Shown here: positions 39,161 through 57,201 of the stretch, in pieces
Layout of the letters: each line of letters starts with the position of its first letter
How positions within the stretch are numbered: the first letter of the stretch is position 1
Position numbers and translations under genes: made by a program
NCBI GenBank assembly: GCA_938015925.1
Contig: CALLVY010000588.1
Span: 9,046-73,045, forward strand
DNA length: 64,000 nucleotides
Source of the DNA: an uncultured Saprospiraceae bacterium
Lineage (GTDB): Bacteria; Bacteroidota; Bacteroidia; Chitinophagales; Saprospiraceae
Reading direction: 5' to 3'
Notes under the pieces: generated by a model
What the model was told of the DNA's origin: nothing
The model's database searches: none
The model's input: the letters and a program-made list of their open reading frames with translations, nothing else

Positions 39161-39949
39161 CTAAAACCAGTTCTTATCTTTTTCGTATCCCGCAAGAATT
39201 AATTCATTTCCGCCAAGTTTGTTAAAGACTTCACAAGCTTCTTGATTGAAATTATTTTTCCAATCCCCTGCGATTCCTTTACGCAGAAAGCTTTTTTTAT
39301 TTTCTGTACCAGGCTCTCTTTTAGTTTGATTTTTGAAAGAGTATTTTTCTACAATCTTTCCAATTTGTTCCCGATCGTGATTGATGCCAAGGAAAGTCAT
39401 CGAAGCAGACAATTCTGCCTGAGCATCTTTTAATAAATTTTCGTAAGTAACCAGATATATATTCTCATTTTGAAGGTAGGAATTTACAAAATCACTCCAC
39501 GAAAAATGAAATCGTCCTGCAGCATAATCTGTGAACATATATTCAATAAACCGAGGCATATTAGATTGTATATCTTCATATTCTTCAAAGTGCAGGCGCG
39601 ACCTATGATATTGGATGCTGTAGGATGGATTTCTATCGTGCTCAAAAAGAAAATGATAATAAGCCGAAACCATTACATCTCGTCCATCCCGAAGAACCGC
39701 TAAGGTTTTTCCAAACGAAGGTTTATATAAAAAATGGCCATGTATAATGCATCTTTCAAAATTGGGACTGACATTTCTTGGAAAAGGAATGCTCGTCGCA
39801 TCGGAAAACATCTGACAAAACCAGGAGCCTCCTGATTTTGGAAACTCTGGCACTAAAACCAGATCGAGAGGCTTTCTAAGGTATTGCCTCATCAATAAGC
39901 GTTTCGCTGCAGCTAGCCTAACTTGGGTTTTGGAACGAGTATCTTTCAT
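39161..39949 (-). CDS. PAPS-dependent sulfotransferase (Sulfotransfer_1-like)
   Basis: 5'-PSB 'FPKSGGSWF', 3'-PB 'VLRDGRDVMVSAYY', and C-terminal 'RKGIAGDWKNNF'. Confidence 0.8.
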   Translation of the reverse strand: MKDTRSKTQVRLAAAKRLLMRQYLRKPLDLVLVPEFPKSGGSWFCQMFSDATSIPFPRNVSPNFERCIIHGHFLYKPSFGKTLAVLRDGRDVMVSAYYHFLFEHDRNPSYSIQYHRSRLHFEEYEDIQSNMPRFIEYMFTDYAAGRFHFSWSDFVNSYLQNENIYLVTYENLLKDAQAELSASMTFLGINHDREQIGKIVEKYSFKNQTKREPGTENKKSFLRKGIAGDWKNNFNQEACEVFNKLGGNELILAGYEKDKNWF

Positions 39950-40971: not shown

Positions 40972-41805
40972 CTAGTTTTGAAAATTTTCATCTAAAAAGA
41001 CAGCCAAAGATGGTTCACTTAGACTTGCCTTGATTTCCTCTTCTATTTTTGGATGAAGTTTCCCCTTCCATTTCGTCACTACCGATTTATCTTTAAAAAC
41101 GGAGTAATCGCTGGTATCGTTTTTCTGATTAGAGGATAATAAAAATTGCTTCGTATTCTCGTCCATTTCAAGATTAGAAAACTTCAAAAGTTTGGAAACT
41201 TCTTCCAATGGATTCAATACCATTTTATCATAATGAGCGATGTAAACCTGATCCGGATACTGCTCGCTGAGACGGAGGTATTTTTTTGTCAGAAGAAGCC
41301 AATCTTTAAATCCCCAATATTCATGTCGGTTAATTTTCCTGCAATCCCCTGTATACCATTCTTCTAAAGGATCTGCATCTTTAGGAAACTCCTTGGCGGA
41401 TTTCAACCAGGAATAAATAGCGGCACATGGATTCCTGACGATATAAACTACTTTGGGTTTTGATGGAAGTTCCAATACTTTTTCCAGTACTTCATGGTAG
41501 CGAACATCTTTGATCACCAAGTGCTCAGGGATCCTTGCTTTGTCTTTAGTGAGTGGAAAGTCTCCTTTTTTTCTACGCTCCTCCTGAAGCAAAAATGCAT
41601 CTTTAGAATTATAAACATTTACAAAAAAATCCTGCCACTCCTCATTCGATGAATCCTCGTTCACTGCATTTTTAAACGCATAGGAGAAAAGAGGAGCCAT
41701 TCTGAATGTCGTGGTAGAAACACTATCGAATATTTGACTTACCCAACTCGTACCAGATCGAGGTAATCCACATAACCAAACAACATTGAAGGGTAAGCTT
41801 TCCAT
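40972..41805 (-). CDS. Sulfotransferase-family protein (P-loop-like PAPS site)
   Basis: 'CGLPRSGTSWVSQIF' (5'-PSB) and 'YIVRNPCAAIYSW' (3'-PB-like R...S). Confidence 0.65.
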   Translation of the reverse strand: MESLPFNVVWLCGLPRSGTSWVSQIFDSVSTTTFRMAPLFSYAFKNAVNEDSSNEEWQDFFVNVYNSKDAFLLQEERRKKGDFPLTKDKARIPEHLVIKDVRYHEVLEKVLELPSKPKVVYIVRNPCAAIYSWLKSAKEFPKDADPLEEWYTGDCRKINRHEYWGFKDWLLLTKKYLRLSEQYPDQVYIAHYDKMVLNPLEEVSKLLKFSNLEMDENTKQFLLSSNQKNDTSDYSVFKDKSVVTKWKGKLHPKIEEEIKASLSEPSLAVFLDENFQN

Positions 41806-41822: not shown

Positions 41823-42728
41823 TTAATTTAATAATCTAAGTGTTCCGGTAATAAAGACAGGCAAGTCAAACTGCTCGGTCAGAAGGTTTGCTTTCTGCTC
41901 AACTTCTTCTCCCGAGAGAGACTTAGGAAAAATATAGCCCACACAAGTTCCACTATGGGTATTCAAAAGGCCAATAGCTCCTGTATCCTTATAGGTCTTT
42001 AGTATTTTCGTTCGAAAAGGATCCTTAGCCCGGTTGTTGAAAATCTCAAAAGATTTAGTTGCACACTTGGCTATTCCAATATCATCTTTATTCTTGAAGC
42101 TTTCAATGAGGTCATGATAGAGGAGATCATATTCCTGAGAACACTGTGGGGTGAAGTTTAGATTATGATTAAAAGAAACGGTATCTACTACTCCACCCAA
42201 GTCTACTGCAACCACCCAATAAGATGGAATGTATTCCAAATCTTTAATCAAATGCCCTTTACGGTGATTATAGATGATACACGATTTATACATTAATCCA
42301 TCATGAGGTTCTATGGAAATAAAAACTTCAGAAATCGTTTTGTTGCGTAATAAAAAACCAAAAATTTCTTGTAATGCTCTAACCGTTGAAAGCATATCAG
42401 CAGTACTAGAACTCAAGCCTTTTCCCACAGGAATATTTCTGCTAAAAGATATCGTCAATTCTACATCTTGGGTGATTCCTAATTTTTCGAGCAGCCTTAA
42501 AGCGACATCCTTTGATTTATATAAATCACAGTTGATTACTAGTGGCCCTTTTCTCTTGACGCAAGTCAAATTGCAGATAGACCAAAGGTCTATAGGCAGG
42601 GTAACCAGAAAATCTTCTCCCGAAGATAATCGCCCTTGAACAATCTCTCCAAAGCTAGAATGAGATTTGCCATAACCTACAAAAATAGGGGTATTGTATA
42701 CGGTGGTTTGGTAGCTATTTCTAAACAT
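41823..42728 (-). CDS. GHMP-family kinase of the PduX (L-threonine kinase)-like branch
   Basis: 'SSFGEIVQGRL', 'NIPVGKGLSSSTADMLS' (GHMP motif II), 'ISIEPHDG' and 'LLNTHSGTCVGYIF' parallel the Salmonella PduX segments as I recall them. Confidence 0.65.
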   Translation of the reverse strand: MFRNSYQTTVYNTPIFVGYGKSHSSFGEIVQGRLSSGEDFLVTLPIDLWSICNLTCVKRKGPLVINCDLYKSKDVALRLLEKLGITQDVELTISFSRNIPVGKGLSSSTADMLSTVRALQEIFGFLLRNKTISEVFISIEPHDGLMYKSCIIYNHRKGHLIKDLEYIPSYWVVAVDLGGVVDTVSFNHNLNFTPQCSQEYDLLYHDLIESFKNKDDIGIAKCATKSFEIFNNRAKDPFRTKILKTYKDTGAIGLLNTHSGTCVGYIFPKSLSGEEVEQKANLLTEQFDLPVFITGTLRLLN

Positions 42729-43693
42729 TATTTCTTAATTAATTTCTGAAGCTTTTCCATATTTTTCCATCCTGAATCTCCCATGATTGCAACCACATCT
42801 CCTTCGATATTATGTCGTTTACAACACGCTAAAGCAGCATGAACAACTCCCCCACCCTGGAAACCTACGAAGATTCCCTGATCTGCCAATTGGATTGTTT
42901 TTTCTTCCGCTTCGTGTTGATGCACTTTCTCCGTATCATGATACAATCCAGTATCCATCATCTTCTGAATAAAGGGAGTGATATAATCTCCATCGTCAAA
43001 TCCTCCTGTTCCTGGAATCTTTGTGCCTGCGGCCGCTTGCGAAGTAAATATTTTTGTATTTGGACTTTGCTCTCTCAAAAAGGTAGAGGTACCCAACATA
43101 CTTCCTCCAGATCCCATTGATCCAATTACCGCAGCTACCTTTGGAAATGCCTTGAGAATTTCTGGTCCTAATGTTTCGTAAGAGGCTTTAGGGTTTGCCC
43201 AATTATGCAACTGGTCCAAAAAGCAATATTTCTCTTGCCCTTCTTTTGTTTTCATGATTTCCGCACAACGTCGGTTTCCCTCCACCGTAATATCTCCATG
43301 TACCGTACAGGTAGCACCAAAATATTCGATGAAATTTTTCTTGTCTTCCGTGAGCTTTGTATTACAAATCACTTCTACTTTGTACCCTAGCTGGCGGCCA
43401 TAGTACGCCAAGGCGCAAGCCATGTTTCCACTACTGGCATCCAAAATTGTTTTCCCTTTTACTAAGTCTCCATTTTCCTCTGCAGCTTTAATATTATACG
43501 TTGCTGCCCGATCCTTGATACTTCCAGAAGGATTTAATCCTTCGTGCTTTATATATAAATTTACATTTGGAAGTTCCTCCTGTTGGAAAAGGAAGTATGG
43601 GGTATTGCCTATAGAATCCATAATTGATTGATAGATTCGAGGCTTCTCATCGCTTTTGAAGTTTGAAGAGGGTTGTTTTGTTAAAAGATCCAT
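42728..43693 (-). CDS. Fold-type-II PLP enzyme (cysteine synthase / threonine synthase / SbnA-like, PALP family)
   Basis: 'NPSGSIKDRAA' (PLP lysine), 'DASSGNMACALA' (Asn loop) and 'SMGSGGSMLG' (phosphate loop). The stop overlaps the kinase start (TAATG). Confidence 0.75.
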   Translation of the reverse strand: MDLLTKQPSSNFKSDEKPRIYQSIMDSIGNTPYFLFQQEELPNVNLYIKHEGLNPSGSIKDRAATYNIKAAEENGDLVKGKTILDASSGNMACALAYYGRQLGYKVEVICNTKLTEDKKNFIEYFGATCTVHGDITVEGNRRCAEIMKTKEGQEKYCFLDQLHNWANPKASYETLGPEILKAFPKVAAVIGSMGSGGSMLGTSTFLREQSPNTKIFTSQAAAGTKIPGTGGFDDGDYITPFIQKMMDTGLYHDTEKVHQHEAEEKTIQLADQGIFVGFQGGGVVHAALACCKRHNIEGDVVAIMGDSGWKNMEKLQKLIKK

Positions 43694-44561
43694 GTTGATG
43701 AAGGTATTTGAAAAGATTCCATAATTCGTTCAAATTTTCTTCTATTTCTTCTATTTGAACTTGATTTTTACTTCTAAGTATATTTAAAAATTGGTGAAAA
43801 ATAGTAATCCCTTTTTCGTCCAGGATCTCTAAATTTAATTTTTCCCAATTCTCTCTAATTTCAGCTTTTTTCTTAACCGGAAACCAAAAATCATCTGACT
43901 GATCGGTTTCCTTAAACTTTTGTTCGGTCGCCACTTTCATAAATCCTTCCAGGCCATTGAACATTAAAGCTCTAAGTAAAATGGCTTCGTAATTATGCTC
44001 TGTAATTATTGCAATGGCATTTTGCTTAATAAGCGCAATGGCATTTTGCATGGAAGAAAAAGTTTTTTCTCCCATATAGTAAAAAACATTGATTGCTAAA
44101 AGGGCATCCAGTTGTTCTTTTTCAATAGGAATGTCATCAAGACTAGAATGAATCAGTAACACTTTTTCTTCTAGTTGATGTTTCTTTAAATATCCGGCCA
44201 GGGATTGCAAAGGAACATGATGGGCATCCAAGGCGATTACTTTTTGAAAACCCTGCTCTAATAAAAACTGGGTGAATCTACCGTCGCCACAACCTAAGTC
44301 TGCGACTACTGCATTTTGGGGATCGAGATGTTCAAGATAGGTACTAATGATTTCTTGATAAAAAGGCGTCTCCCAACCTGCCTGGTGTAGTTCAAATTGA
44401 CTTAATTCCCGAAGGTTCGCACCTTTAGGTTTGCTATCATGAAACTCAATTCCGGAATTCTTTTCTACCTTTCCCTGGTAGATTCCAAATTCATCTGGCT
44501 CTGATTGACTTAGTAAATCATTATTAAGAAGCTGGTGTTTCCAATTCAAGTCTTTCAGCAA
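43647..44561 (-). CDS. Class I SAM-dependent methyltransferase
   Basis: 'VVADLGCGDGRFTQFLLEQGF' (motif I) and 'DALLAINVFYYM'. TTG start that overlaps the ATP-grasp stop. Confidence 0.65.
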   Translation of the reverse strand: MLKDLNWKHQLLNNDLLSQSEPDEFGIYQGKVEKNSGIEFHDSKPKGANLRELSQFELHQAGWETPFYQEIISTYLEHLDPQNAVVADLGCGDGRFTQFLLEQGFQKVIALDAHHVPLQSLAGYLKKHQLEEKVLLIHSSLDDIPIEKEQLDALLAINVFYYMGEKTFSSMQNAIALIKQNAIAIITEHNYEAILLRALMFNGLEGFMKVATEQKFKETDQSDDFWFPVKKKAEIRENWEKLNLEILDEKGITIFHQFLNILRSKNQVQIEEIEENLNELWNLFKYLHQHGSFNKTTLFKLQKR

Positions 44562-45777
44562 AATTGTTCTTTTTTAATTTAATTAAAATATCGTCTTTTA
44601 AGTTCGTTCCTAGTAGTTCTTGCATTTCCTCAAAGCTATCATACTTAAGCAGTAACAAACCAAGTCGGCATCCAGAGTTGATAAACTTATTTACCGGGTC
44701 TCCTGGTTTAACCGATAATACGGACTGATAAATTATTTTTTCTTTGATTCTTTCTGAAATATCTAAACTTTCAAAAACGCCACTTTTATCAGAATGAATG
44801 ACATAATGAGAATAACATGCTCCTAAGCTTGTCCCTTCAACTGCTAAAATTGGATCGCCCATGCATTGCAAAATAGAAGAAGAAATCAGATCATAACCTG
44901 TATGATAATGAATAATATCATTGAGCATGTTTCCTCCATTGCGGGCCCCGATATCAATAACCATTGGGCGGCCATCTTCACATTCGATCACATCAACATT
45001 AAAGGTGCCCAATTTAATATCTACTTGAGCAAAGATTTTCTTTAAATCTTCTGATACCTCTTTGAAAAATTCTTTTGGCTTTGATGCTGGTAGAGAAATA
45101 GATCTTGGAACCAGACCATTAATCGAATCGTTAAAGTGAACATCTCCAAAACAATTGAAGACAATTTCTCCATCCTGAACCAATACATCTCCTGACATCA
45201 AAAATCCGTCTCTTTGAATGTGTTCTTCCAGAATAACTTTATCAATTCTGGAAAAAGAAACGCTATCCGTAAAATGCGCTTCCACCTGATCAATATCTTC
45301 TTTACCCAAAATGGTCACTCCTTTGCTACCGGAAGAATCAACAGGTTTTATAATGAATCGCTTTTGTTCTCTGTTCAGAATTTCAGCAATGTCAGCTCCA
45401 CTTTTCACTTCAAAAAAAAGTGGATAAGGTACTCCCGCATCTTTTTGAATTTGTCGAAAGGTTACTTTATCCGACAATAATTTAATGGCTTCAAAAGAAT
45501 TAGAAGGAATCCCCATTTTTTCTCCTACATAGGCTGCGGTAAGTGCTCCAGGATCGGAAGCATAAGAAGAGATACCGTCGATTTGTAGTTTTTGAGCGAG
45601 TTCGTAGATTTCCTCTAAAACGGTGGTGCTTACATTGTGGTACTCATCAGATATTTGATGACCCGGATTGTCCGGTTTATAATCTGCGGTAATCACATAG
45701 TAACCCAATTTTTTTGCTGCTTCGATGGCGGTCACCTGAATATCTGCACCACCAAGCATCAATAATTTTTTCTTCAT
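44524..45777 (-). CDS. ATP-grasp domain ligase
   Basis: 'KKLLMLGGADIQVTAIEAAKKLGYYVI', 'FIIKPVDSSGSKGVTIL', 'ILEEHIQ' and 'VIDIGARNGGN'. The ATG at 45777 is preferred over the listed TTG at 45825, which would overlap the DegT gene by 38 nt. Confidence 0.65.
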   Translation of the reverse strand: MKKKLLMLGGADIQVTAIEAAKKLGYYVITADYKPDNPGHQISDEYHNVSTTVLEEIYELAQKLQIDGISSYASDPGALTAAYVGEKMGIPSNSFEAIKLLSDKVTFRQIQKDAGVPYPLFFEVKSGADIAEILNREQKRFIIKPVDSSGSKGVTILGKEDIDQVEAHFTDSVSFSRIDKVILEEHIQRDGFLMSGDVLVQDGEIVFNCFGDVHFNDSINGLVPRSISLPASKPKEFFKEVSEDLKKIFAQVDIKLGTFNVDVIECEDGRPMVIDIGARNGGNMLNDIIHYHTGYDLISSSILQCMGDPILAVEGTSLGACYSHYVIHSDKSGVFESLDISERIKEKIIYQSVLSVKPGDPVNKFINSGCRLGLLLLKYDSFEEMQELLGTNLKDDILIKLKKNNFAERLELETPAS

Positions 45778-45787
45778 TATGGATCTA

Positions 45788-46909
45788 TTAAGTATTTTGT
45801 TTAATGATGCGACAGATAAGCTCAATATCCTCTAATTCCAACTTGTGATAAAGCGGCAAGCAAAGAACTGATTTGGACGTTTTATCCGCCACAGGAAGGT
45901 CATAATTTTTCTCTACATAAGGAAGTTTGGCCAAGGATGGATAGAAGTACCTCCTAGGTTTGATTCCCATTTCTCCGAGCTTTTCAATTACCTTAAAAAG
46001 TATATTTTCAGATTCGAAGACTACTGGGAAATAAGAAAAATTATAGTCTGTCTCATTCCTTATTTGCTGAAATTTCAGATTGCTATCCTGGAGTAATTCC
46101 AAGTAGGTCTGATATTGCTCTTTTCTTTTGGCTTTAATGTCATCGATGTATTTCAAATTGCAAAGTCCCATAGCCGCGTGGAATTCTGAGTTTTTTCCAT
46201 TCACTCCTAAATTTGCAAATCGTTCTGGTCCATCGTGTCCAAAATTTCTGAGATAAAGCATTTTGGCTTGAAGCTCTTTATTTGCGGTGACAACCGCTCC
46301 TCCTTCAACCGTGTGGAATAACTTTGTGGCGTGGAAACTAAGCGTACTTATATCGCCATATTCCAGAAGAGACATGCCTTTATAGTTGACGCCAAAACAA
46401 TGGGCAGCATCGTATATAACTTTTAAGCCATTTCGATTCGCGATATCCTGGATGGCTTCCACATCACAAGGATTTCCAAAAACATGTGTTGCTAAAATCG
46501 CCGTGGTATTTTTGGTGATGGCTTTTTCAATTAACTCTGGGTTTACATTAAATGTTCCGGGATCAATATCAACGAAAACGGGGGTGCAATTTTCCCAGAC
46601 CAGACTTGAGGTCGTCGCCACATAAGAAAAGGGGGTAGTAATTACTTCTCCTTTTAATTCCAGTGCTTTGATGGCTATCTGGATAGCTATTGTTCCATTG
46701 GTTAAAAAAAGAAGATTCTGGATATCCAGATGTTTTTCTAATTTTTTCTCTAAGTCTTTGACGTTGGGGCCATTATTTGTTAGCCAATTGCGATCCCAAA
46801 TTTTTGATAAATATTCGAGGTATTCTTCTTTAGGAGGAAGAAATGGTTTGGTGACGGGAATATTCTTTTTTAAAACTCCCGTATCTTTTTCAGTCGAAGG
46901 ATACAGCAT
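45788..46909 (-). CDS. DegT/DnrJ/EryC1-family nucleotide-sugar aminotransferase (PglE/PseC/WecE-like lysine context)
   Basis: 'IPVTKPFLP', 'GEVITTPFSYVATTSS', 'DAAHCFG' and 'STLSFHATKLFHTVEGGAV' (PLP lysine). Confidence 0.8.
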   Translation of the reverse strand: MLYPSTEKDTGVLKKNIPVTKPFLPPKEEYLEYLSKIWDRNWLTNNGPNVKDLEKKLEKHLDIQNLLFLTNGTIAIQIAIKALELKGEVITTPFSYVATTSSLVWENCTPVFVDIDPGTFNVNPELIEKAITKNTTAILATHVFGNPCDVEAIQDIANRNGLKVIYDAAHCFGVNYKGMSLLEYGDISTLSFHATKLFHTVEGGAVVTANKELQAKMLYLRNFGHDGPERFANLGVNGKNSEFHAAMGLCNLKYIDDIKAKRKEQYQTYLELLQDSNLKFQQIRNETDYNFSYFPVVFESENILFKVIEKLGEMGIKPRRYFYPSLAKLPYVEKNYDLPVADKTSKSVLCLPLYHKLELEDIELICRIIKQNT

Positions 46910-46923: not shown

Positions 46924-48399
46924 TTAATTAGAAAATTCTTCCATTTTGGGCTTCTTATCAAGCAACACTTTAACAAAATTCAATATTCTTAGGAGTTGCT
47001 CATTATTGAAAAAATAAGAGAAGCCAAAGAATAGAATTGTCCATACAGACCAATATAGAAACAGTGCTACGGAATGGGTAAAATCACTAATAAAATGACT
47101 AAAGGAAAATAGTAAAAATCCGATAATCAGAGCTATGATCAAGTTCTTAAACAAAGGAAAGTAATGTGGGAAAAAATTCAATTCAACAACCTTGTTTATT
47201 GCTCGTTGTCTAATAAAAAAGATAACAATCGAGTTTATCGTTATTCCCAGGGCTACCCCTTTTAATCCATAAAAATGTCCTAGCGTCAAAAAGAAGAAAA
47301 CTTTGAGTCCTTGCGCCAATAAACCATAATTAAAGATCATTTTACTTTTTCCAAGTGCTAAAATGATGCTATTGGAAATTGGCGAAAGACTAATCATTAA
47401 GCCTTGGATACAGAATATCTGGAACAAAGGAATCATGGGTAACCATTTTGTCCCAAAAAGTAATTTAACGATAAGGTCTGCAGAAAAAAACAATCCTAGC
47501 AAACCAGGAAAAATAAAAAAGGAAACCATCGCCATCGCCTCTATGTAAGTACTCTTTAATTTTTCGGTGTCCTCACTTATCTTGGAAAAAGAAGGAAATA
47601 AGACATTGAAGAAAGTTCCTGAAAAACTCGAAACTGGTTTTGTCATTAAGCGGCTGGCATTTTCGTAAAACCCGAGCGAAGCGACGCCTAAAAACTTTCC
47701 AATATAAATTCGATCAAATTTTGCAGCCAATTTATTTAATAAATTAAAGCCTAATACATTAATACTAAATCCATAAAGAGTACTCAAAGAAGCTTTGCTA
47801 AAGACAAAGGAGGGTCGCCATTTATTAGAAAACCATAATCCGATAGCCATGATGCTATAATTGATGATTTGTATGGCTACCAGACTCCAAACACCAAAAT
47901 CTCTATAGGCCAGCATCAGTCCCGTTCCCTGGGCACAAATTAAAGCTGAAATATTAATGATAGATAAAGCTTTAAAATTTAGCGATCTCTTAATTAATGT
48001 TCTTTGAACAACATTCAAAGAAGCTAATAAAAAAGAAAAGGCAAGAACTCTGGCTAATGGTGTAAGCTTTGGTTCCCCATAGAACATCGCAATCAAGGGT
48101 GCTAATAACAGACCTAAACAAAACAAGGCAATCCCAATAGCGATATTAGCCCAAAAGACCGTAGATAAATCTGTTTGACTAACCTCTTTCCGCTGAATCA
48201 ATGCATCTCCAAAACCACCATCAATGATAGCTTCCGAAAGGCCATAAAAAACAAGAATCATCCCCATCCAACCATAATCCTGAGGACTTAGTATCCTCAA
48301 TAGAAAAACGCTGAAAATCAAGGTCAAAAGTTGTATTCCAAAACGATCTAAACCTTGCCAAAAGAACCCTACTAAAACCTTCTTCTTTAATGAACTCAT
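46924..48399 (-). CDS. wzx: Wzx-type oligosaccharide flippase (MOP/PST family), copy 2
   Basis: 491 aa. 'GFFWQGLDRFGIQLLTLIFSVFLLRILSPQDYG', multi-pass membrane protein. Confidence 0.75.
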   Translation of the reverse strand: MSSLKKKVLVGFFWQGLDRFGIQLLTLIFSVFLLRILSPQDYGWMGMILVFYGLSEAIIDGGFGDALIQRKEVSQTDLSTVFWANIAIGIALFCLGLLLAPLIAMFYGEPKLTPLARVLAFSFLLASLNVVQRTLIKRSLNFKALSIINISALICAQGTGLMLAYRDFGVWSLVAIQIINYSIMAIGLWFSNKWRPSFVFSKASLSTLYGFSINVLGFNLLNKLAAKFDRIYIGKFLGVASLGFYENASRLMTKPVSSFSGTFFNVLFPSFSKISEDTEKLKSTYIEAMAMVSFFIFPGLLGLFFSADLIVKLLFGTKWLPMIPLFQIFCIQGLMISLSPISNSIILALGKSKMIFNYGLLAQGLKVFFFLTLGHFYGLKGVALGITINSIVIFFIRQRAINKVVELNFFPHYFPLFKNLIIALIIGFLLFSFSHFISDFTHSVALFLYWSVWTILFFGFSYFFNNEQLLRILNFVKVLLDKKPKMEEFSN

Positions 48400-48481: not shown

Positions 48482-49468
48482 TCAAAGTTTGACTTTAACT
48501 AAATCTTTAACCGTGAGTTTAAGTCCTTTCTTTAAATCTATTTGATTATCCCATCCCAATACTTCTTTCGCTTTACTGGTATCCGAAAAGTTTCTCATCA
48601 CATCTCCTACTCTTTTTGGACCATGAACCAATTTCACATCACTGGTACCAAAATCTTTCAAAACTTCCAATAACTCTTCTGTTACTTCCAATACAGTTGT
48701 CTCTCGATTGGTTGCTATTTGGAATATCTCCCCTCCTATTCCTTCTTTTGTTCCTGCTAACCAAATAGCATTTACTAAATCTCCGGTATAGATGAAATCT
48801 CTGGTTTGGGAGCCATCGCCATAAATTTCCAAGGTTTCTCCATTCATTGCCTGGCGAATAAACTTAGCAACTACACTACTCTTATGCGTAGATCCCGGGC
48901 CATAAACATTTCCAAACCTCAAGGCAATAGTATTCACTCCATAGGATCGAAAATAAGCGGAACAATAGGCCTCTCCGGCTAGCTTGCTTGCTCCATAAGG
49001 GGAAACCGGATGACAGGGCATCTCTTCGTGTATCGGTGGAATACATTCGCCGATAGGAGCGCCGCTAGAAGCAAAAACAAAACGGTCGACTTTATTTTTT
49101 CGACAACCTTCGAGGTAATTAAACGTTCCAACCACATTGGTCATACAATCCATTCTTGGGTTTTCTACAGAAGGACCTACTCCTGTATTGGCCGCTAAAT
49201 GGACAATCACATTTGCTCCGGATGTTACTTGCTTTGCCAGATCTGCATCCATAATATCCCCCTCTATCACTTGCACTTTATTGCTTGCCCAATCGGCATC
49301 CTCCATAGAAACCTGTTCAATGGCATCCGTAGCATAAAATAAATCTTCTTTCTTGCCAACGGAAAAATTATCAATGACTCTAATCGAAAGATTTTCTTCT
49401 TTCTGAAGAAGTTCTTTTATTAGGTTTTTTCCTAAAAATCCGCAGCCGCCTGTTATTAACCAATTCAT
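48482..49468 (-). CDS. SDR-family NAD-dependent nucleotide-sugar epimerase/dehydratase
   Basis: 'WLITGGCGFLGKNL' and 'SPYGASKLAGEAY' (Y-x3-K). The start shares nt 49468 with the sqdB stop. Confidence 0.7.
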   Translation of the reverse strand: MNWLITGGCGFLGKNLIKELLQKEENLSIRVIDNFSVGKKEDLFYATDAIEQVSMEDADWASNKVQVIEGDIMDADLAKQVTSGANVIVHLAANTGVGPSVENPRMDCMTNVVGTFNYLEGCRKNKVDRFVFASSGAPIGECIPPIHEEMPCHPVSPYGASKLAGEAYCSAYFRSYGVNTIALRFGNVYGPGSTHKSSVVAKFIRQAMNGETLEIYGDGSQTRDFIYTGDLVNAIWLAGTKEGIGGEIFQIATNRETTVLEVTEELLEVLKDFGTSDVKLVHGPKRVGDVMRNFSDTSKAKEVLGWDNQIDLKKGLKLTVKDLVKVKL

Positions 49469-50619
49469 TATTTACTCCATTTTACTCGTGGAAAAATTTT
49501 AGCTTCATCGATATTGTCTCGATATTTTAAAGCTAATTTCATCATATCTGCCAATACTTCGGGAGTCATAAAGTTCGGTTGCAATCCTAGCTCTAATAAT
49601 CCGGTGTTAGCAGGGTTGTAATAATGATCTTCTGGTTCTCTTCTTGGATTCGGAATAGATTTAATTTCTACGTCAATTCCAACTAGTTTACCCGCCTCCT
49701 GAACCTTATCGGCCAATTCGTTTACTGAGAAGGTCTCAGTCAATTGATTATAAATTTTTAGTTCGCGTTTCTCTGCTGGGTTATTTAAAGCAAGATCTAC
49801 ACATTGCAAAGTATCTTTCAAATTAAGGTAACCTCTAACCTGTCCACCTTTTCCATAAACCGTCAAAGGAACACCCGCTACAGCTTGCACTAAAAAGCGA
49901 TTGACAACGGTACCAAAAATATCATCGTAGTGGAAATTAGGCAATAGTCGTTCATCCAAATCAGATTCGGCAGTAGAAAGACCATAAACGGGACCTTGCA
50001 TAAGGTCAGTAACTTTAAGGTCGTAGGTTCTTACATAGAACCAAAGTAAATCCGTATCTAAAACTTTCGTGGTATGGTACAAACTTCCAGCTGCTCTAGG
50101 AAACAAAAATTTATCTTTACGACCTTTGTGTTCTATTTCTAACCAACCTTCTTCAATATCAATATTGGGACATCCATATTCTCCCATCGTCCCTAATTTC
50201 ACGATGTGGCACTCTGGTTTGTTTTTTAGAATTGCCCAAATTAAGTTATGAGTAACTTCCAGGTTATTTTTCAAGGTATAGTGGGCCTCTTCATATCCTT
50301 TAAGAGAATACGGTGCAGAAGGTTGTTCTGCATAATGAACCACTGCATCTGGCTGAAATTCTTTGATATGGTTTTCTAAAAAACGATAATCTTTCAAATC
50401 TCCAATTGCGACATTTATGGTCTTTCCCGTCAGTGATTTAAATAGCTTTGCTTTATCCTCCAGGTTAGGAGTAGGAATCAAAGCCTCAGAAGACGTTTGC
50501 ATCGCAATTGTTCTTCTAGAGTAGTTATCTATAGATAATACTTCATGACCTTTTGCGGCAAGGTCCATTGATGTAGGCCATCCAAGATAACCGTCACCGC
50601 CTAAAATGATTATACGCAT
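49468..50619 (-). CDS. sqdB: UDP-sulfoquinovose synthase (SQD1/SqdB family)
   Basis: Collinear with plant SQD1 as remembered: 'ILGGDGYLGWPT', 'KLGTMGEYGCPNIDIEEG', 'YHTTKV', 'PLTVYGKGGQVRGYL', 'FSVNELA' and 'PNPRREPEDHYYN'. Confidence 0.85.
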   Translation of the reverse strand: MRIIILGGDGYLGWPTSMDLAAKGHEVLSIDNYSRRTIAMQTSSEALIPTPNLEDKAKLFKSLTGKTINVAIGDLKDYRFLENHIKEFQPDAVVHYAEQPSAPYSLKGYEEAHYTLKNNLEVTHNLIWAILKNKPECHIVKLGTMGEYGCPNIDIEEGWLEIEHKGRKDKFLFPRAAGSLYHTTKVLDTDLLWFYVRTYDLKVTDLMQGPVYGLSTAESDLDERLLPNFHYDDIFGTVVNRFLVQAVAGVPLTVYGKGGQVRGYLNLKDTLQCVDLALNNPAEKRELKIYNQLTETFSVNELADKVQEAGKLVGIDVEIKSIPNPRREPEDHYYNPANTGLLELGLQPNFMTPEVLADMMKLALKYRDNIDEAKIFPRVKWSK

Positions 50620-50740: not shown

Positions 50741-51787
50741 CTAATTAAGTACTTCCGTTTTGTTGTATAGTAATTCTTCTTCAATCAAATATTGTTTCAA
50801 TTCCTCTACATTCATAGAAGGCTCGAGATCAGATCTATAGATTCGATCCACTGGTTTTTGTTCCACTCCGTTGAAAGTATATTCAATGTCTTTGTATACA
50901 GATTTGAAAGCAGGTAATACCGCAAAGAAATCATCAATCTCAACGGTCCGTCTTATCTCTTCCTCATTGATGAGTTCCTCATAAACTTTCTCTCCTGCTT
51001 TTGCTCCAATGATCTTTAATTCAATCTCCTCGTAAATTTCTTCTTTCTCCTTGATGATTTCAATCATTGAAGTCGCCAGATCTTTGATTTGGATAATTGG
51101 CATTTTGGTTACAAAAACTTCTCCTCCGTGAGCGAGAAAAACAGATTGTAGTACGAGTTTGGCCGCTTCTTCGATGGTCATCACAAAACGGCTCATTCTT
51201 TCATCGGTTAAAGTAACCGGTCCTCCATTTTGTATTTGCTTCTTAAAGAGTGGAATTACAGATCCATTAGATCCTAAAACATTTCCAAATCGAGTGGAAG
51301 CAAAGATGGGGTATTGTCCTTTTCTAGAAGCATTCGCAGCGGTCATTAACCGTTCGCCCATCAGTTTGGACGTTCCCATTACATTCGTTGGGTTTACTGC
51401 TTTATCAGAAGAAGTAAAGATGACTCTTTCCACCTCCATTTCTAAGGCTACATCAATGAGTGTTTGCGTACCAAGGATATTGGTACGAACCGCCTCCGAA
51501 GGGGATTTTTCACAAAGGATAACATGCTTGCGCGCTGCTGCATGCAATACGATGTCAATTCCTTTAAATAATCTCCTCAATTCAGATTTATTGGTAATAT
51601 CACATAGGTAAAAATTGATATCATCGTTATTTCTGTATGGCTGTGTAGCAAAGAATAATTCGCTTTCATTGCTATCGACACCCACAATTGATTTAACATT
51701 TAAATCTACTAGTTGTCTAAGTAGTTCTGTCCCTACTGTTCCACAAACACCAGTGATTAAAACTTTCTTGTCTTGCCAAGGATTCAT
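50741..51787 (-). CDS. WbpM/PglF/CapD-type nucleotide-sugar 4,6-dehydratase (short soluble form), second copy
   Basis: 'KKVLITGVCGTVGTEL' and 'FTSSDKAVNPTNVMGTSKLMGE' (S-M-K triad variant). Confidence 0.7.
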   Translation of the reverse strand: MNPWQDKKVLITGVCGTVGTELLRQLVDLNVKSIVGVDSNESELFFATQPYRNNDDINFYLCDITNKSELRRLFKGIDIVLHAAARKHVILCEKSPSEAVRTNILGTQTLIDVALEMEVERVIFTSSDKAVNPTNVMGTSKLMGERLMTAANASRKGQYPIFASTRFGNVLGSNGSVIPLFKKQIQNGGPVTLTDERMSRFVMTIEEAAKLVLQSVFLAHGGEVFVTKMPIIQIKDLATSMIEIIKEKEEIYEEIELKIIGAKAGEKVYEELINEEEIRRTVEIDDFFAVLPAFKSVYKDIEYTFNGVEQKPVDRIYRSDLEPSMNVEELKQYLIEEELLYNKTEVLN

Positions 51788-51814: not shown

Positions 51815-52891
51815 TCAAACCATTGCATCTCGATAGATTTTTCTACCGATGATGATTATTATTGCGAGGAAACTTCCTAAAAAGGCTCCTAATATTATTG
51901 CTTTAATTTTAGATTCCCTGTTGGGTCTAAGAGGAGAAAAAGGTTCATCAATGACTTGGAAAAAGGGCATTGCAATTTTTAAATTAAAGGCTGCCATTTC
52001 CGTGTTTTTTACGATTTCCGCATAAGCGACACTAAGCATTTGTACATCTCTTTGCAATCGATCAATTTTCAATTGAGCAGATCTGGAAACCAATCCAATA
52101 TTGCTGTCAATAGCTTTTGCGAGTAAAGATTCCTTCCTCGCAAGTTCTTGACTTATAGAGTCTCTTTTTTCCTTTAATTTGTCAAAAGTAGCTTTGGGTT
52201 TATCTGTACTTTCTTTGATGTAAAACTGACTGACTTTTTCGTACAATTCTTTTAAAAAGAGAATAGATAATTCTTCCGATTGGCTTTCAACCTCCATCGT
52301 TAATATAGAAGTTTCCTTTTCGTAATACACAAGCATTAGTGGCTCTATATTTGGATTTCCTTTTACTTGGTTATAGACAATTTTCAATGCCCTTCTTTCT
52401 GTCTTACCAAATTTTTCTATTTCACTATTGGTAAAATAAAAGTCTTTTAACCCCGTCGTATCTTTTTTCCACTTTTCGTGAATTTGTTCTGCCTTTATAA
52501 TATGATTGGCAAAATAATCCAATTTATTTTTCACTACTGCTTTTTCAAATAGAGCCTCTTTGGTAATCCGCAAAGACTTCGATAGCTCTGCGATTTTATC
52601 AAGATTGAATTCTCCACCACCGCCGCCGCCAAGTCCAAACTGTCCTAAAATAGAACCCATGCCGCCGTTGCTACCGCCGCTTTCTTCATTGACCATAAAC
52701 GTCATGTCCGCTACATAAGTTACCGGAGTAGTAATAGCAGTGTATAAAAAATAAGAGCCTCCTAAAACGAGGAATACCGCTACAATTTTCCAGTTCCTAA
52801 GTACCTCTCGATAAAATTCCTGTACCTTAAGAATTAACTCCTTAAGTGTGATTTCGTCCTCTTTTACTGTTATTTGATTTCCTTCCTTCAT
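51815..52891 (-). CDS. wzz: Wzz/PCP-type chain-length determinant protein without a tyrosine-kinase domain
   Basis: N-terminal '[14 protein letters not shown]...[17 protein letters not shown]' (Wzz motif plus TM1), a coiled-coil middle, and a C-terminal TM '[19 protein letters not shown]'. No Walker motifs. Confidence 0.7.
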
Positions 52892-53748
52892 TCAACAATA
52901 CCTCTTAGATATTCTCCATATCCACTCTTAACCAAAGGTTTCGCAATTTCCAACAACTGCAATTTATCTATATACCCCATCCGATAAGCAATCTCCTCTA
53001 TACAACCGATTTTATAATCCTGTCGTTTCTCAATCACTCTGACAAATTCCGTCGCATCATGCAAAGAATCAAAGGTTCCAGTATCCAACCAAGCCGTTCC
53101 ACGATCCATAACCCCTACACTCAATTCCCCTTTCTCCAGGTACACTCGATTCACATCGGTGATCTCATATTCTCCCCGAGCAGAAGGAGCTATATTTTTT
53201 GCAATCTCTACGACCTGATTATCATAGTAGTACAATCCAGGCACTGCAAATTTTGATTTGGGTTCTGCTGGTTTTTCTTCGATGGAAATAACCTTGTTGT
53301 CCTCATCAAATTCCACTACGCCATATCGTTCCGGATCCGAAACGGGATAAGCAAAAACTTTTGCACCTTTTACGTCTACACTCGATTGCAATAATTTACT
53401 TAAACCTGAGCCATAAAAAATGTTGTCTCCCAAAACGAGTGCTACTTTATCATTTCCGATAAACTCCTCTCCTATTACAAAAGCCTGCGCTAATCCGTTG
53501 GGTACATGTTGAACTGCATAGTTAAAGCTACAGCCCAATTCTTTTCCATCTCCTAAGAGCCTTTGGAATTGAGGGCTATCTTCAGGTGTGGTGATGATTA
53601 AAATTTCTTTAATTCCCGAAAGCATCAAAATCGACAAGGGATAATAAATCATTGGCTTGTCGTAGATTGGCATTAGCTGTTTAGAAATAGCTTTGGTTAT
53701 AGGGTAAAGGCGAGTGCCGGATCCGCCGGCGAGGATAATTCCTTTCAT
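52888..53748 (-). CDS. rfbA: Glucose-1-phosphate thymidylyltransferase
   Basis: '[39 protein letters not shown]' and 'LGDNIFYG'. The stop overlaps the wzz start (ATGA). Confidence 0.95.
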
Positions 53749-53993: not shown

Positions 53994-55259
53994 CTAAATC
54001 ACCATTCCTGCAGCCACCGTTTCATTCGTTCCTTCATCTACCATAATCACACTACCTGTAATTCTATTTTTTCGATAAGAGTCAACGAATAATGGTTTGG
54101 TAGATCGGATGACGATACGCGCAATTTCATTCATCTCAATATTTTTATCCTCCAGGTCTCTATGGAGGGTATTGATATCTAAGCGGTAACGCACCTCTTT
54201 CACTACACATCTTGCTTCTTGGGTCGTATGCATGATTTTATATTTCCCATTCAGCTTAAGCGGCTTTTCATTGAACCAGCACACCATTAGTTCTAAGTCC
54301 TGTGTGGCATCCGGTTGATTGTTTTGCCGAACGATCATATCTCCTCGACTAATATCTATTTCATCCTCTAATAAAATAGTAGCAGACATTGGAGGAAAGG
54401 CCGCATCAACTTCTCCGTCGTAAGTATCTATCTTTTTAATTTTTGAGGTAAATCCAGAAGGCAATACGACTACCTTGTCTCCTTTTTTCATAACCCCTCC
54501 TGCTACTCGTCCGGCATAGCCTCGATAATCGTGATGCTCATCCGTATTTGGTCTAATCACATATTGAACAGGGAAACGTGGATCAATAAAGTTATGGTCA
54601 CTGCTGATGTGTACATTCTCTAGATAGTACATCAAGGTGGTGCCACCATACCAATCCATGTTCATAGATTTATCAACCACATTATCTCCATTCAAAGCAG
54701 AGATCGGAATGAAGGTCATATCATTGATATCTAACTTAGAAGAGAATTCTGTAAAATCATTTTTGATTTTTTCATAAACCTCTTGAGAGTGATCCACCAA
54801 ATCCATTTTGTTGATACATATAACCAAGTGAGGAATTTGCAATAAGGAAGCAATAATAGCATGCCTTTTGGTTTGCTCTCCTACTCCTTTTCTTGCATCA
54901 ATCAAAACCAAAGCAACATTTGCCGTGGATGCTCCGGTTACCATATTCCTGGTATATTGAATATGGCCTGGTGTATCTGCAATTATAAATTTTCTCTTTG
55001 GGGTCGAGTAATACCGGTAGGCTACATCAATAGTAATTCCTTGTTCTCTTTCTGCTTTTAAACCATCGGTAAGTAAGGCTAGATTTACTTCCGTCTCTCC
55101 CCGACGTAAGCTACTTGCTTCCATCGCTTCATATTGATCTTGAAAGATAGATTTACTATCGTATAAAAGTCTACCAATAAGCGTACTTTTTCCATCATCT
55201 ACACTACCTGCGGTAGTAAAGCGAAGGAGTTCCATTTTTTGATATTCTTGATTATCCAT
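53994..55259 (-). CDS. cysN: Sulfate adenylyltransferase subunit 1 (GTPase subunit; no fused APS-kinase domain)
   Basis: 'GSVDDGKSTLIGRLL' (G1), 'IIADTPGHIQYTRNM' (G3) and 'INKMD' (G4). 421 aa. Confidence 0.9.
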   Translation of the reverse strand: MDNQEYQKMELLRFTTAGSVDDGKSTLIGRLLYDSKSIFQDQYEAMEASSLRRGETEVNLALLTDGLKAEREQGITIDVAYRYYSTPKRKFIIADTPGHIQYTRNMVTGASTANVALVLIDARKGVGEQTKRHAIIASLLQIPHLVICINKMDLVDHSQEVYEKIKNDFTEFSSKLDINDMTFIPISALNGDNVVDKSMNMDWYGGTTLMYYLENVHISSDHNFIDPRFPVQYVIRPNTDEHHDYRGYAGRVAGGVMKKGDKVVVLPSGFTSKIKKIDTYDGEVDAAFPPMSATILLEDEIDISRGDMIVRQNNQPDATQDLELMVCWFNEKPLKLNGKYKIMHTTQEARCVVKEVRYRLDINTLHRDLEDKNIEMNEIARIVIRSTKPLFVDSYRKNRITGSVIMVDEGTNETVAAGMVI

Positions 55260-55617: not shown

Positions 55618-56520
55618 TTAAAAATACCCTTGCTTCTTTCGATCTTCCATAGAAGTTTCAGATCGTTTATCATCAGAACGTCCGCCTCTTTCTGTAATTC
55701 GAGTGGTGGCTACTTCTTCGATAATGGCTTCCAGCGTATCTGCCTTGGAAGGAGAAACTCCGGTACAAGTCATGTCCCCAATAGTCCGACAACGCACCAT
55801 TAGTTCTACCACTTCTTCGGTAGGTTTTTTAGGAATTACAGGAGTGTCTGCGAGTAGGATTCCATCTCTCCAAAAACATTTTCGAGTGTGTGCAAAATAT
55901 AGAGAAGGTAATTCTACCTTTTCCATTGCAAGGTATTGCCAAACATCTAGCTCGGTCCAGTTACTAATTGGGAATACTCGAAAGTGTTCTCCCATACGTT
56001 TGTCCCCATTAAAAAGATTCCACAATTCAGGTCGTTGGTTTTTGGGATCCCACTGACCGAATTCATCGCGGTGAGAAAAGAAACGTTCTTTTGCTCTTGC
56101 TTTTTCTTCATCTCTTCGGGCACCCCCCAGAGCAGCGTCGAATTTACCTTTTTCTAATTCATTCAGTAATACAGCTGTCTGTAATCCATTTCGGCTAGCA
56201 TTAAACCCCTTCTCTTCTGTAACCATTCCAGTATCAATGGCTTCTTGTACAGAACCCACGATAAGTCTAGCTCCCATTTTTTCAACGAGATCGTCTCTAA
56301 ATTTAATGGCTTCCGGAAAATTATGTCCTGTATCTACATGGAGTAAGGGAAAAGGAATTCTTGCAGGGTGAAATGCTTTTTGGGCGAGGTAAACCATGAG
56401 AATGGAATCCTTACCTCCAGAAAACATTAACACTGGATTTTCGAATTGAGCAGCAACTTCTCTCAATATAAAAATTGATTCGGCTTCTAATTCTTTTAGA
56501 TGATTGAGGTGATAATTCAT
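55618..56520 (-). CDS. cysD: Sulfate adenylyltransferase subunit 2
   Basis: 'LKELEAESIFILREV', 'VLMFSGGKDS' (PP-loop) and 'RRDEEKARAKERFFS'. Confidence 0.95.
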   Translation of the reverse strand: MNYHLNHLKELEAESIFILREVAAQFENPVLMFSGGKDSILMVYLAQKAFHPARIPFPLLHVDTGHNFPEAIKFRDDLVEKMGARLIVGSVQEAIDTGMVTEEKGFNASRNGLQTAVLLNELEKGKFDAALGGARRDEEKARAKERFFSHRDEFGQWDPKNQRPELWNLFNGDKRMGEHFRVFPISNWTELDVWQYLAMEKVELPSLYFAHTRKCFWRDGILLADTPVIPKKPTEEVVELMVRCRTIGDMTCTGVSPSKADTLEAIIEEVATTRITERGGRSDDKRSETSMEDRKKQGYF

Positions 56521-56637: not shown

Positions 56638-57201
56638 CTAATTTTTTGAAGCAATTAAAAATCCATTGTTTACTTTACGAAGTAAGCTTGGATCAATATT
56701 TATCTGTAAAGTATATCCCAAAAATTCGAGATCTACCAAAAACTGCTTTCTGCCTTGGATGGAACACAATCTGCCTTTTGTTCCAACTAAGTTTCCACTA
56801 ATCACTTCTACTTCATCTCCCTCCTGATATATTTGCTTCTCCGCATTAATTTCTAATCCTTCTCCCAAAATACGTTTCATCAATTCCATCTCTACATCTG
56901 GAATAGCAATTAAATTTCCAGAGAATTTCACAAAGCCCATGACTTGTTCCGTTTCCAATACCCGGATATATTCTTTTTTGGTAATTTTTACAAAGACGTA
57001 GCAACTAATCAAGGGAAGTTCTACTTTACGAATTTTACGCGTATAGCGACGTACTAATTGTTGTACCGGTAAATAAGCGGTAATTCCTTTTTTCTGTAAT
57101 TGACGGCATACGAGTTTTTCCCTTTTATAAGGAGTATAGATAGCAAACCAACGGGAGTCATTGGCATCAAGGTGGTTTTCGTATGTGGTGCTGTTAGTCA
57201 T
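56638..57201 (-). CDS. upxY: UpxY-family (NusG/RfaH-like) transcription antiterminator
   Basis: NGN-like 'WFAIYTPYKREKLVCRQLQKKGITAYLPV' and KOW 'EGDEVEVISGNLVGTKGRL'. The ~187-aa size is typical of Bacteroidota capsule-locus UpxY proteins. Confidence 0.8.
   Translation of the reverse strand: MTNSTTYENHLDANDSRWFAIYTPYKREKLVCRQLQKKGITAYLPVQQLVRRYTRKIRKVELPLISCYVFVKITKKEYIRVLETEQVMGFVKFSGNLIAIPDVEMELMKRILGEGLEINAEKQIYQEGDEVEVISGNLVGTKGRLCSIQGRKQFLVDLEFLGYTLQINIDPSLLRKVNNGFLIASKN

Follow-up and report, generated by a model that had tools for sequence, protein, structure and literature searches.

A conserved pairing of an Arg101-less SQD1 homologue with a Pen-like dehydratase in bacterial polysaccharide loci: candidate genes for C-sulfonated nucleotide sugars

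Sulfoquinovose is usually seen as a product of phototrophs and as a constituent of a few archaeal N-glycans. In the Sulfolobus N-glycan it is made by Agl3, which belongs with SQD1 and SqdB to the uridine diphosphate (UDP)-sulfoquinovose synthases (EC 3.13.1.1); a review from 2026 on how bacteria cycle sulfoquinovose in aquatic ecosystems names only SqdB/SqdX in phototrophs and leaves bacterial polysaccharides unmentioned. The 4-epimer of sulfoquinovose, 6-C-sulfofucose, occurs in the N-glycan of Thermoplasma acidophilum and in glycolipids of Fucaceae, and before 2025 neither a biosynthetic nor a catabolic pathway was known for this sugar (PMC12421959). [quoted passage not shown] A precedent for division of labour around such an intermediate is found in Bacillus thuringiensis, where two short-chain dehydrogenases/reductases (SDRs) split a single dehydratase reaction: Pen makes the 5,6-ene of UDP-6-deoxy-N-acetylglucosamine (UDP-6-deoxy-GlcNAc-5,6-ene), and Pal re-oxidises C4 and completes the reaction (PMC8987622). 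Here, we describe a 64,000-nucleotide (nt) stretch from an uncultured Saprospiraceae bacterium (contig CALLVY010000588.1; "the window" denotes this stretch at its full length), in which the gene for an SQD1-family protein of 383 amino acids (aa) lies in a polysaccharide locus between genes for a 348-aa dehydratase and a 328-aa SDR. On balance we lean, if only a little, towards the reading that this homologue, which lacks the Arg101 of SQD1 and Agl3, acts as the sulfite-adding part of a conserved nucleotide-sugar cassette for polysaccharide.

The first-pass annotation had described the 383-aa product as collinear with SQD1/SqdB, and the comparison with Arabidopsis SQD1 (PDB 1qrr) bears this out: phmmer aligned query residues 2-383 with residues 3-384 of the chain without a single gap, at 48% identity (E 1.7e-124, 419 bits), a full-length match far beyond chance, and the four peptide strings quoted in support of the claim (IVKLGTMGEYGCPNIDIEEGW, LYHTTKVL, PLTVYGKGGQVRGYL and PNPRREPEDHYYN) are all found in the translation. 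The protein matches the Pfam Epimerase family and carries the nicotinamide adenine dinucleotide (NAD)-site motif GxxGxxG as GGDGYLG. With the proven synthases it shares fold, length, this motif, the T-M-G, E-Y and Y-H-x-x-K residues and, as a prediction, the need for sulfite; like Agl3, it would feed a glycan rather than a lipid. The residues kept are His95, Thr144-Met145-Gly146, Glu147, Tyr148, Tyr181, His182 and Lys185, of which T144-M145-G146-E147-Y148, Y181-H182 and K185 are invariant in 199 close relatives (the 120 closest database homologues and 79 from species-representative genomes). The fingerprint [ST]MG...Yx3K of the UDP-sulfoquinovose synthases SQD1 and Agl3 (PMC8987622) is likewise present. 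Among the residues probed in Agl3 (His95, Arg101, Met145, Glu147, Tyr148, Tyr182 and Lys186; PMC4388408), H95, M145, E147, Y148, Y182 and K186 are all retained. The position of Arg101 in SQD1 and Agl3 is, however, occupied by Pro100, and that of Asn208 by Met207; in Agl3, the R101A exchange gives an enzyme that is inactive in the conversion of UDP-glucose to the 5,6-ene (PMC4388408).

This exchange is a property of the whole clade: proline replaces Arg101 in 199 of the 199 close relatives, all of which also show YHTTK where SQD1 has YHLSK and MQGP where it has NQGV, the change from Asn208 to Met co-varying with the proline. To place the clade within the family, we aligned 92 full-length representatives, one per cluster at 50% identity, with the query and with SQD1, 94 sequences in all. 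The Arg101 position is Pro in 68 and Arg in 21 of these, the proline mostly paired with Met, whilst the arginine sequences combine Arg with Asn (SQD1, cyanobacterial-like and Agl3-like sequences) or Arg with His; the latter carry a GTMGVYG motif, and we take GTMGVYG/HQG to be the mark of Rhodobacter-type SqdB. SQD1 and Agl3, the two synthases checked by sequence, are both of the Arg type (EQRSAP loop). Arg101 presumably aligns with the NAD-contacting Lys84 of GalE, and we assume, by analogy with GalE, that the segments around Arg101 and Asn208 line the sugar pocket. In a neighbour-joining tree of the 50%-identity representatives, which is star-like and poorly resolved and served for coarse grouping only, the query falls among the Pro/Met sequences, apart from the Arg/Asn and Arg/His groups. 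Placement against SqdB, SQD1 and Agl3, which had been put forward as a check, sets the protein, at this coarse resolution, outside the groups that contain proven enzymes. The identification as SqdB/SQD1 stands as far as family membership is concerned, but the canonical conversion of UDP-glucose plus sulfite into UDP-sulfoquinovose is put in doubt by the proline at Arg101 and by the NCBIfam model for UDP-sulfoquinovose synthase (NF041015), whose cut-off of 575 bits is not reached (453.2 bits). These sequence features place the window protein in one of the numerous Pro-type clades; it is not a canonical UDP-sulfoquinovose synthase. Public annotation of the relatives differs by source, with "UDP-sulfoquinovose synthase" used by JGI and "NAD-dependent epimerase/dehydratase family protein" by NCBI.

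Interrupted sequences are frequent among the SQD1-family representatives of 680-1160 aa (P0127, P0129, P0154, P0231, P0247); in several of them an intein, Hint or LAGLIDADG homing-endonuclease domain separates the N- from the C-terminal half of the enzyme. Fusions of the SQD1 homologue with the dehydratase were sought among the long representatives (>650 aa) and none was found: the long sequences mostly reflect inteins or LAGLIDADG domains. Two others, P0226 and P0258, join the SQD1-like domain to a C-terminal class-V aminotransferase domain resembling cysteine desulfurases and sulfinate desulfinases and carry Cys or Ser at the Arg101 position; this fusion may represent another coupling of a sulfur donor to the SQD1 family.

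In order to see which neighbours accompany the Pro-type gene, we took 80 loci, one genome per species, with homologues 64-88% identical to the window protein, out of at least 564 confirmed relatives; 79 of them were analysable. They span more than ten phyla, among them Bacteroidota, Planctomycetota, Chloroflexota, Gemmatimonadota, Actinomycetota (Rubrobacter marinus), Nitrospinota and the Alpha-, Beta-, Gamma- and Deltaproteobacteria, and the nearest relatives of the window gene come from Saprospirales/Saprospiraceae genomes (88-77% identity). A homologue of the 348-aa dehydratase (45-87% identity) is present in 72 of the 79 loci, in 70 of them within 3 kilobases (kb); the median gap to the SQD1 homologue is 9.5 nt, and the dehydratase gene lies upstream on the same strand in 53 loci. 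Where at least 5 kb of sequence is available on both sides (51 loci), the dehydratase is found in 48, at a distance of no more than 50 nt in 38. It had initially been treated as mere context for the coupled pair of SQD1 homologue and SDR; with 48 of 51 well-flanked loci against 24 of 51 for the SDR, it is in fact the most conserved partner. As a control, we used 80 metagenome loci around Arg-type SqdB-like genes (all R/YHLSK/NQG, 66-99% identical to P0124), and neither the partner dehydratase nor CysH occurs in any of them; no adjacent GT4 (family 4 glycosyltransferase)/SqdX-like gene and no polysaccharide genes were found in these control loci either, the classical sqdB-sqdX pairing not being seen there. 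A dedicated Polysacc_synt_2 dehydratase accompanies nearly all of these Pro-type homologues, in contrast to the Arg-type genes of the control. In about 12 loci the pair represents the sole SDR or aminotransferase genes within 10 kb on either side, as Pfam confirms for L011 (a gammaproteobacterium) and L043 (Rubrobacteraceae); if the dehydratase released a 4-keto sugar there, no further enzyme would be at hand to process it. No glycosyltransferase family is conserved beside the pair across the 79 loci, the families varying by locus, and every such context inspected contains Wza, Wzz, Wzx, Wzy or ABC-2 transporters. Since nucleotide-sugar genes accompanied by variable glycosyltransferases are the usual mark of a cassette for one activated sugar, we read the two genes as one pathway.

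The closest solved relative of the partner is Pen (240 bits), ahead of CapE (205), FlaA1 (190) and PglF (189). Its motif SSDKAVNPTNVMGTSK holds the S-D-K and MxxxK elements (SSDK...MGTSK), and the subfamily is uniform, with lengths of 335-372 aa and S/T-D-K plus MxxxK in 120 of the 120 closest homologues. With PglF, WbpM, CapE, FnlA and PseB it has in common the Polysacc_synt_2 domain and the S/T-D-K pair, and with CapE and PglF the MxxxK; it differs from these enzymes in having no membrane domain and in being linked to an SQD1 homologue and an APS reductase (APS, adenosine 5'-phosphosulfate) rather than to aminotransferases or reductases. It remains below the equivalog cut-offs for PseB (260 versus 407.75 bits) and FnlA (219.6 versus 730 bits). 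Whilst Pen has Tyr in its Yx3K motif, the partner has Met, as do CapE and PglF, and the comparison with Pen/Pal differs further in that the second enzyme is SQD1-like, that the proposed nucleophile is sulfite instead of hydride and that no pseudaminic-acid genes follow. The Asp-Lys pair was considered as a means of separating 5,6- from 4,6-dehydratases and ruled out: wild-type Pen carries D128/K129, the 6bwc crystal being that of a mutant (PMC8987622), and the S-D-K/MxxxK set of the partner is hence silent on 4,6- versus 5,6-dehydration.

A link to sulfite is provided by a third type of gene. An APS/PAPS reductase (PAPS, 3'-phospho-APS) yields sulfite and would draw on the activated sulfate that sulfotransferases need, and to our knowledge the enzymes of the SQD1 family are the only sugar-nucleotide enzymes known to use sulfite. 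Such a reductase was found in 12 of the 79 loci (~15%), in nine of them within 3 kb, and in at least five phyla; proteins of 219-244 aa with the PAPS_reduct domain lie within the cassette in Akkermansiaceae, Rhodocaloribacter, Caldilineaceae and Salinibacter ruber, in the order PAPS_reduct protein, SDR of a second type, optional small family 2 glycosyltransferase (GT2), dehydratase, SQD1 homologue and optional SDR. Furthermore, six dehydratase homologues are fusions of CysH with the dehydratase (584-591 aa, PF01507: P0345, P0352, P0375, P0382, P0387, P0388). P0345, the sole fusion sequence inspected, has an intact N-terminal CC...CxxC...ECGLH, the signature of assimilatory APS reductases. In a Mariprofundaceae locus (L088) this fusion gene (10001-11776) overlaps by 4 nt the gene of the SQD1 homologue, which follows it directly and precedes another SDR, the whole placed immediately after Wza and Wzz. 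The only sensible reading of an APS reductase within a polysaccharide operon is that sulfite is a substrate there, and nothing speaks more strongly for sulfonate chemistry in the Pro-type clade than its presence in, or fusion to, the cassette. The suggestion of the first-pass annotation that a sugar with a C-S sulfonate is a constituent of the glycan is strengthened by these related cassettes and appears plausible. Sulfotransferase-like open reading frames (ORFs) also occur in at least 12 of the 79 Pro-type loci compared to 1 of the 80 control loci.

The 328-aa SDR had been called epimerase-like, which agrees with its best solved relatives, Thermotoga maritima GalE (183 bits), WbgU and WbpP, with Pal at 123 bits. 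Its motifs are GalE-like (ASSGAPIGE and YGASK) without the TDE of RmlB; all NCBIfam matches are below cut-off (GalE 143 versus 262 bits), and 4-ketoreductases share the same fold. On this basis we regard it as a candidate 4-epimerase. SDRs of this type are found up- or downstream in 33 of the 79 loci (24 of the 51 well-flanked ones), and the GalE-like SDR is an optional third member of the cassette, present in ~45% of loci. The second SDR type ("SDR-B", ~306-343 aa) is ~28% identical to the 328-aa SDR and usually lies between CysH and the dehydratase; it was seen in L083-L087, L003-L006, L009 and L014 at position -2 from the SQD1 homologue. In Salinibacter ruber and Rhodocaloribacter the small GT2 (203-218 aa) is inserted in that interval as well. 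Both the second SDR type and the inserted GT2 are absent from the window.

We propose a fixed core consisting of a UDP-N-acetylhexosamine (HexNAc) dehydratase of the Pen/PglF/CapE type and the SQD1 homologue, to which a GalE-like SDR and an APS reductase would be added as options. The dehydratase would oxidise C4 of a UDP-sugar, most likely UDP-GlcNAc, eliminate water across C5/C6 and pass on the 5,6-ene; the SQD1 homologue would then re-form the 4-keto-5,6-ene, add sulfite at C6 and reduce C4 to afford a UDP-6-deoxy-6-C-sulfo-hexose(NAc), of which the GalE-like SDR could turn part or all into the galacto (sulfofucose-type) epimer. Variable glycosyltransferases would load the sugar onto an undecaprenyl-linked repeat unit, to be flipped by Wzx and followed by polymerisation, O-sulfation and export through Wza. 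The loss of Arg101 fits an enzyme that has been relieved of dehydration, given that Agl3 R101A loses the dehydration half-reaction. Homology, residue pattern, gene coupling, the conservation of the cassette and its restriction to the Pro-type clade, and the adjacency and fusion of the APS reductase are observed; we infer in this scheme that the Pro-type protein adds sulfite, in which order the core enzymes act, that a HexNAc is the substrate, that the product is 4-epimerised and what becomes of the sugar in the polymer. Other arrangements are equally compatible, with the SQD1 homologue acting before an enzyme of the dehydratase family that epimerises, or with the two enzymes working in a complex. 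The product of the cassette is possibly HexNAc-derived and 4-epimerised. The full two-component version, in which a Pen-like 5,6-ene and sulfite are combined by the Arg-less SQD1 homologue to give UDP-N-acetyl-sulfoquinovosamine and the GalE-like SDR forms the sulfofucosamine epimer, is offered only tentatively and, taken as a whole, may well not hold. An epimer of this kind resembles sulfofucose, a 4-epimer of sulfoquinovose in a glycan being the product expected of an SQD1-like and a GalE-like enzyme, although sulfofucose is archaeal or algal rather than part of a bacterial repeat-unit polysaccharide.

Several points weigh against the proposed cassette function. Sulfite addition by the Pro-type clade is an extrapolation. 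All residues linked to dehydration save Arg101 are kept, so the SQD1 homologue could be self-sufficient, and the partner retains the S-D-K/MxxxK set of 4,6-dehydratases, so it could simply make UDP-4-keto-6-deoxy-HexNAc; the HexNAc assignment itself derives from what we take to be the use of UDP-GlcNAc by characterised Polysacc_synt_2 enzymes. CysH is found in only ~15% of genome loci, and its fusion partner is the dehydratase rather than the SQD1 homologue, so that either enzyme could meet sulfite; within the 64-kb window no CysH/APS reductase was detected, CysD giving only a weak match. In addition, the neighbour counts were obtained by simple longest-ORF calling and BLAST thresholds, and the control loci represent one high-GC peat/soil Arg-type clade in housekeeping contexts. 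In a possible, if less probable, explanation, along the lines of the first-pass annotation, the 383-aa enzyme makes UDP-sulfoquinovose from UDP-glucose and sulfite by itself, the SDR epimerises it to UDP-sulfofucose and the dehydratase is unrelated, producing 4-keto-6-deoxy-HexNAc, for example for the DegT aminotransferase of the locus or as initiating sugar. The 48% identity to SQD1 exceeds the 39-47% of representatives with the presumed Rhodobacter-type motif, the catalytic triad and [ST]MG residues are complete, and the 68 prolines among the 94 aligned sequences suggest that Arg may be dispensable; the DegT enzyme of the window could also consume a 4-keto sugar. Such a stand-alone synthase is, however, disfavoured by a dehydratase that is clade-specific and beside the gene in 48 of 51 loci, when DegT-like genes are rare in related loci (12-15 loci, ~27% identity) and about 12 loci provide no other enzyme for a 4-keto sugar. 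The CysH-dehydratase fusions tie the dehydratase, too, to sulfite, there is no conserved glycosyltransferase that would explain a fixed two-sugar motif, and Arg101 is essential in Agl3.

An improbable explanation would dispense with sulfur altogether: the Pro-type protein would simply reduce the 4-keto group of what the dehydratase makes, or epimerise it (to give, for example, UDP-QuiNAc or UDP-FucNAc, the UDP-activated N-acetylated amino sugars of the quinovose and fucose type), with the likeness to SQD1 a matter of ancestry. The loss of both Arg101 and Asn208 and the score below the NCBIfam equivalog cut-off agree with this, and the pairing of a dehydratase with a reductase is the most frequent two-gene scheme in loci of this kind; yet it leaves unexplained why an APS reductase forms part of the cassette in at least five phyla and has been joined to the dehydratase in fusion proteins, and why residues specific to sulfoquinovose synthases (TMGEYG and the His following the catalytic Tyr) are strictly kept in 199 of 199 relatives. 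Least credible of all, in our view, is the supply of UDP-sulfoquinovose for the membrane lipid sulfoquinovosyl diacylglycerol through an SqdX-like GT4, which had been raised as a caveat. The locus does contain two GT4 genes, and a GT4 is sometimes the next gene in relatives (for example in L011 and L083). The caveat finds no support in the window and the 79 loci, where the gene has no conserved glycosyltransferase beside it: neighbouring GT4 families vary from locus to locus, the window GT4s are closest to models of the exopolysaccharide (EPS) type, none of them at cut-off, and the loci hold flippases, polymerases or ABC-2 exporters, with the window gene itself located within a UpxY/Wza/Wzz/Wzx operon. 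The earlier view that this is a polysaccharide locus of the Wzx type, not a lipid locus, is accordingly upheld.

Comparison with the described systems reveals an enzyme family and a chemistry that are known, combined in a partnership and a context that are new, with a substrate that is probably new. The window protein is set apart from SQD1, SqdB and Agl3 by Pro/Met in place of Arg101/Asn208, by YHTTK, by its score and by its occurrence in bacterial loci of the Wzx/Wzy or ABC type. A search of the full-text literature returned neither such a cassette nor a sulfoquinovose-containing bacterial capsular polysaccharide, EPS or lipopolysaccharide, with the restriction that subscription carbohydrate-chemistry journals are thinly covered and a structural report could be missed. 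If the proposed cassette function is correct, heterotrophic bacteria would join the producers of C-sulfonated sugars, the cassette being present in many Proteobacteria as well as in Bacteroidota, Rhodothermota, Chloroflexota, Verrucomicrobiota, Planctomycetota, Actinomycetota and Gemmatimonadota; sugars of the sulfofucose type would have their first candidate genes, and the SQD1 family would split functionally into stand-alone Arg-type and partnered Pro-type enzymes. If the sugar is moreover an amino sugar, C-sulfonated amino sugars could be expected in capsules, EPS or O-antigens, with a relative of the gene in at least 564 species-level genomes, and would form an unrecognised pool in the organosulfonate cycle. 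As several carriers are cultured, a direct test is feasible; they include the Salinibacter ruber strain of GCA_024808775.1 (L087), Rubrobacter marinus SCSIO 52915 (NZ_CP045121.1, at about 634-656 kb), Neptuniibacter sp. PT8_73, Roseovarius nitratireducens TFZ and Wenzhouxiangella sp. 15190.

The features of the window are collected in Table 1. Their order on the minus strand, 5' to 3', is dehydratase, a 121-nt gap, the 383-aa gene, the SDR, an 82-nt gap and Wzx, with the dehydratase and the flippase flanking the gene pair as first described. The stop codon TAA that ends the 383-aa gene shares one base, nt 49468, with the ATG that starts the SDR (AAA TAATG AAT), as had been noted, and the SDR gene is translationally coupled to that of the SQD1 homologue; terminator-like sites were sought between the three SDR genes and none was found. 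A 150-aa ORF on the plus strand (51159-51611) lies wholly within the dehydratase gene and is almost certainly a shadow ORF and no gene.

Table 1. Coordinates of the features discussed, in the numbering of the window (TM, transmembrane)
Feature	Position	Strand	Basis
Wza-type export protein (Poly_export and SLBB repeats)	60912-63629	minus	domain matches
UpxY-family transcription antiterminator	56638-57201	minus	125 bits, cut-off 100
CysD, small subunit of sulfate adenylyltransferase	55618-56520	minus	445 bits, above cut-off
CysN, large subunit of sulfate adenylyltransferase, without fused APS kinase	53994-55259	minus	592 bits, above cut-off
RmlA	52888-53748	minus	478 bits, above cut-off
Wzz-like chain-length protein (GNVR domain, two TM-like segments)	51815-52891	minus	Pfam/TM scan
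Short soluble Polysacc_synt_2 dehydratase, 348 aa, Pen/CapE/PglF/PseB family	50741-51787	minus	Pfam 320 bits
SQD1-family extended SDR, 383 aa, Pro-type	49468-50619	minus	ORF call, Pfam, alignment with SQD1
TAATG stop/start overlap, SQD1 homologue to SDR	49466-49470	minus	sequence
GalE/WbpP/WbgU-like extended SDR, 328 aa	48482-49468	minus	NCBIfam, solved relatives
Wzx/MOP flippase	46924-48399	minus	Polysacc_synt_3 287 bits; Wzx model 268.8 bits versus cut-off 273
DegT aminotransferase	45788-46909	minus	
ATP-grasp ligase	44524-45825	minus	
S-adenosylmethionine-dependent methyltransferase	43647-44561	minus	
CysK/CysM-like pyridoxal phosphate enzyme	42728-43693	minus	
GHMP-kinase-like protein	41823-42728	minus	
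PAPS-type sulfotransferase	40972-41805	minus	
PAPS-type sulfotransferase (GT2 between the two)	39161-39949	minus	
Candidate Wzy polymerase, 466-aa membrane protein	35907-37307	minus	at least 8 TM-like segments, no family match
GT4	34693-35865		best matches EPS-type GT4 models, none at cut-off
Carbamoyltransferase (NodU/CmcH type)	32985-34712	minus	
MBOAT O-acyltransferase	30328-31806	minus	
Bac_transf, initiating polyprenyl-phosphate sugar-phosphate transferase	26799-27491	minus	domain match
GT4	21075-22283		best matches EPS-type GT4 models, none at cut-off

From ~19.8 kb to ~63.6 kb every gene is on the minus strand, forming one large polysaccharide locus. It begins with Wza, nucleotide-sugar enzymes, UpxY (a hallmark of Bacteroidota that typically heads polysaccharide operons), CysD, CysN, RmlA, the Wzz-like protein, the three SDRs and Wzx, continues with DegT, the ATP-grasp ligase, the methyltransferase, the CysK/CysM-like enzyme and the GHMP-kinase-like protein, followed by the two sulfotransferases, GT2 and GT4 glycosyltransferases, a beta-helix protein and the candidate Wzy, and ends with the carbamoyltransferase, MBOAT, the small Bac_transf initiating transferase and GDP-fucose genes (GDP, guanosine diphosphate). 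The parts of a Wzx/Wzy locus found are thus Bac_transf, Wzx, the GNVR/Wzz-like protein and Wza, with Wzy as a candidate only. CysD and CysN supply APS within the same transcription unit as the cassette. No APS kinase (CysC) was found in the window; PAPS and sulfite must be completed by genes outside it, where a housekeeping CysH would make the sulfite. As predicted from the encoded enzymes, the polymer would be O-sulfated by the sulfotransferases of the locus and, besides, carbamoylated and O-acylated. In case of RmlA, rmlB, rmlC and rmlD are absent from the window, and its product deoxythymidine diphosphate-glucose would depend on a dehydratase gene located elsewhere, if it does not feed the DegT branch by some other way.

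The five-gene block between Wzx and the sulfotransferases (41823-46909) looks like a route to an amino sugar that is N-acylated with a non-standard, possibly sulfur-containing, amino acid; homologues of the block were absent from the 79 related loci. Its CysK/CysM-like enzyme scores below the cysteine synthase cut-off and also matches SbnA (141 bits) and the cysteate synthase CapA (116 bits). A second polysaccharide-type locus (3444-19800), mostly on the plus strand and divergently transcribed, encodes a DegT aminotransferase, a protein with a formyltransferase domain, a Wzx-type flippase (7133-8608), two AsnB-like amidotransferases and a GT4, and is preceded at the start of the window by a gene for a Peptidase_C25-domain protein.

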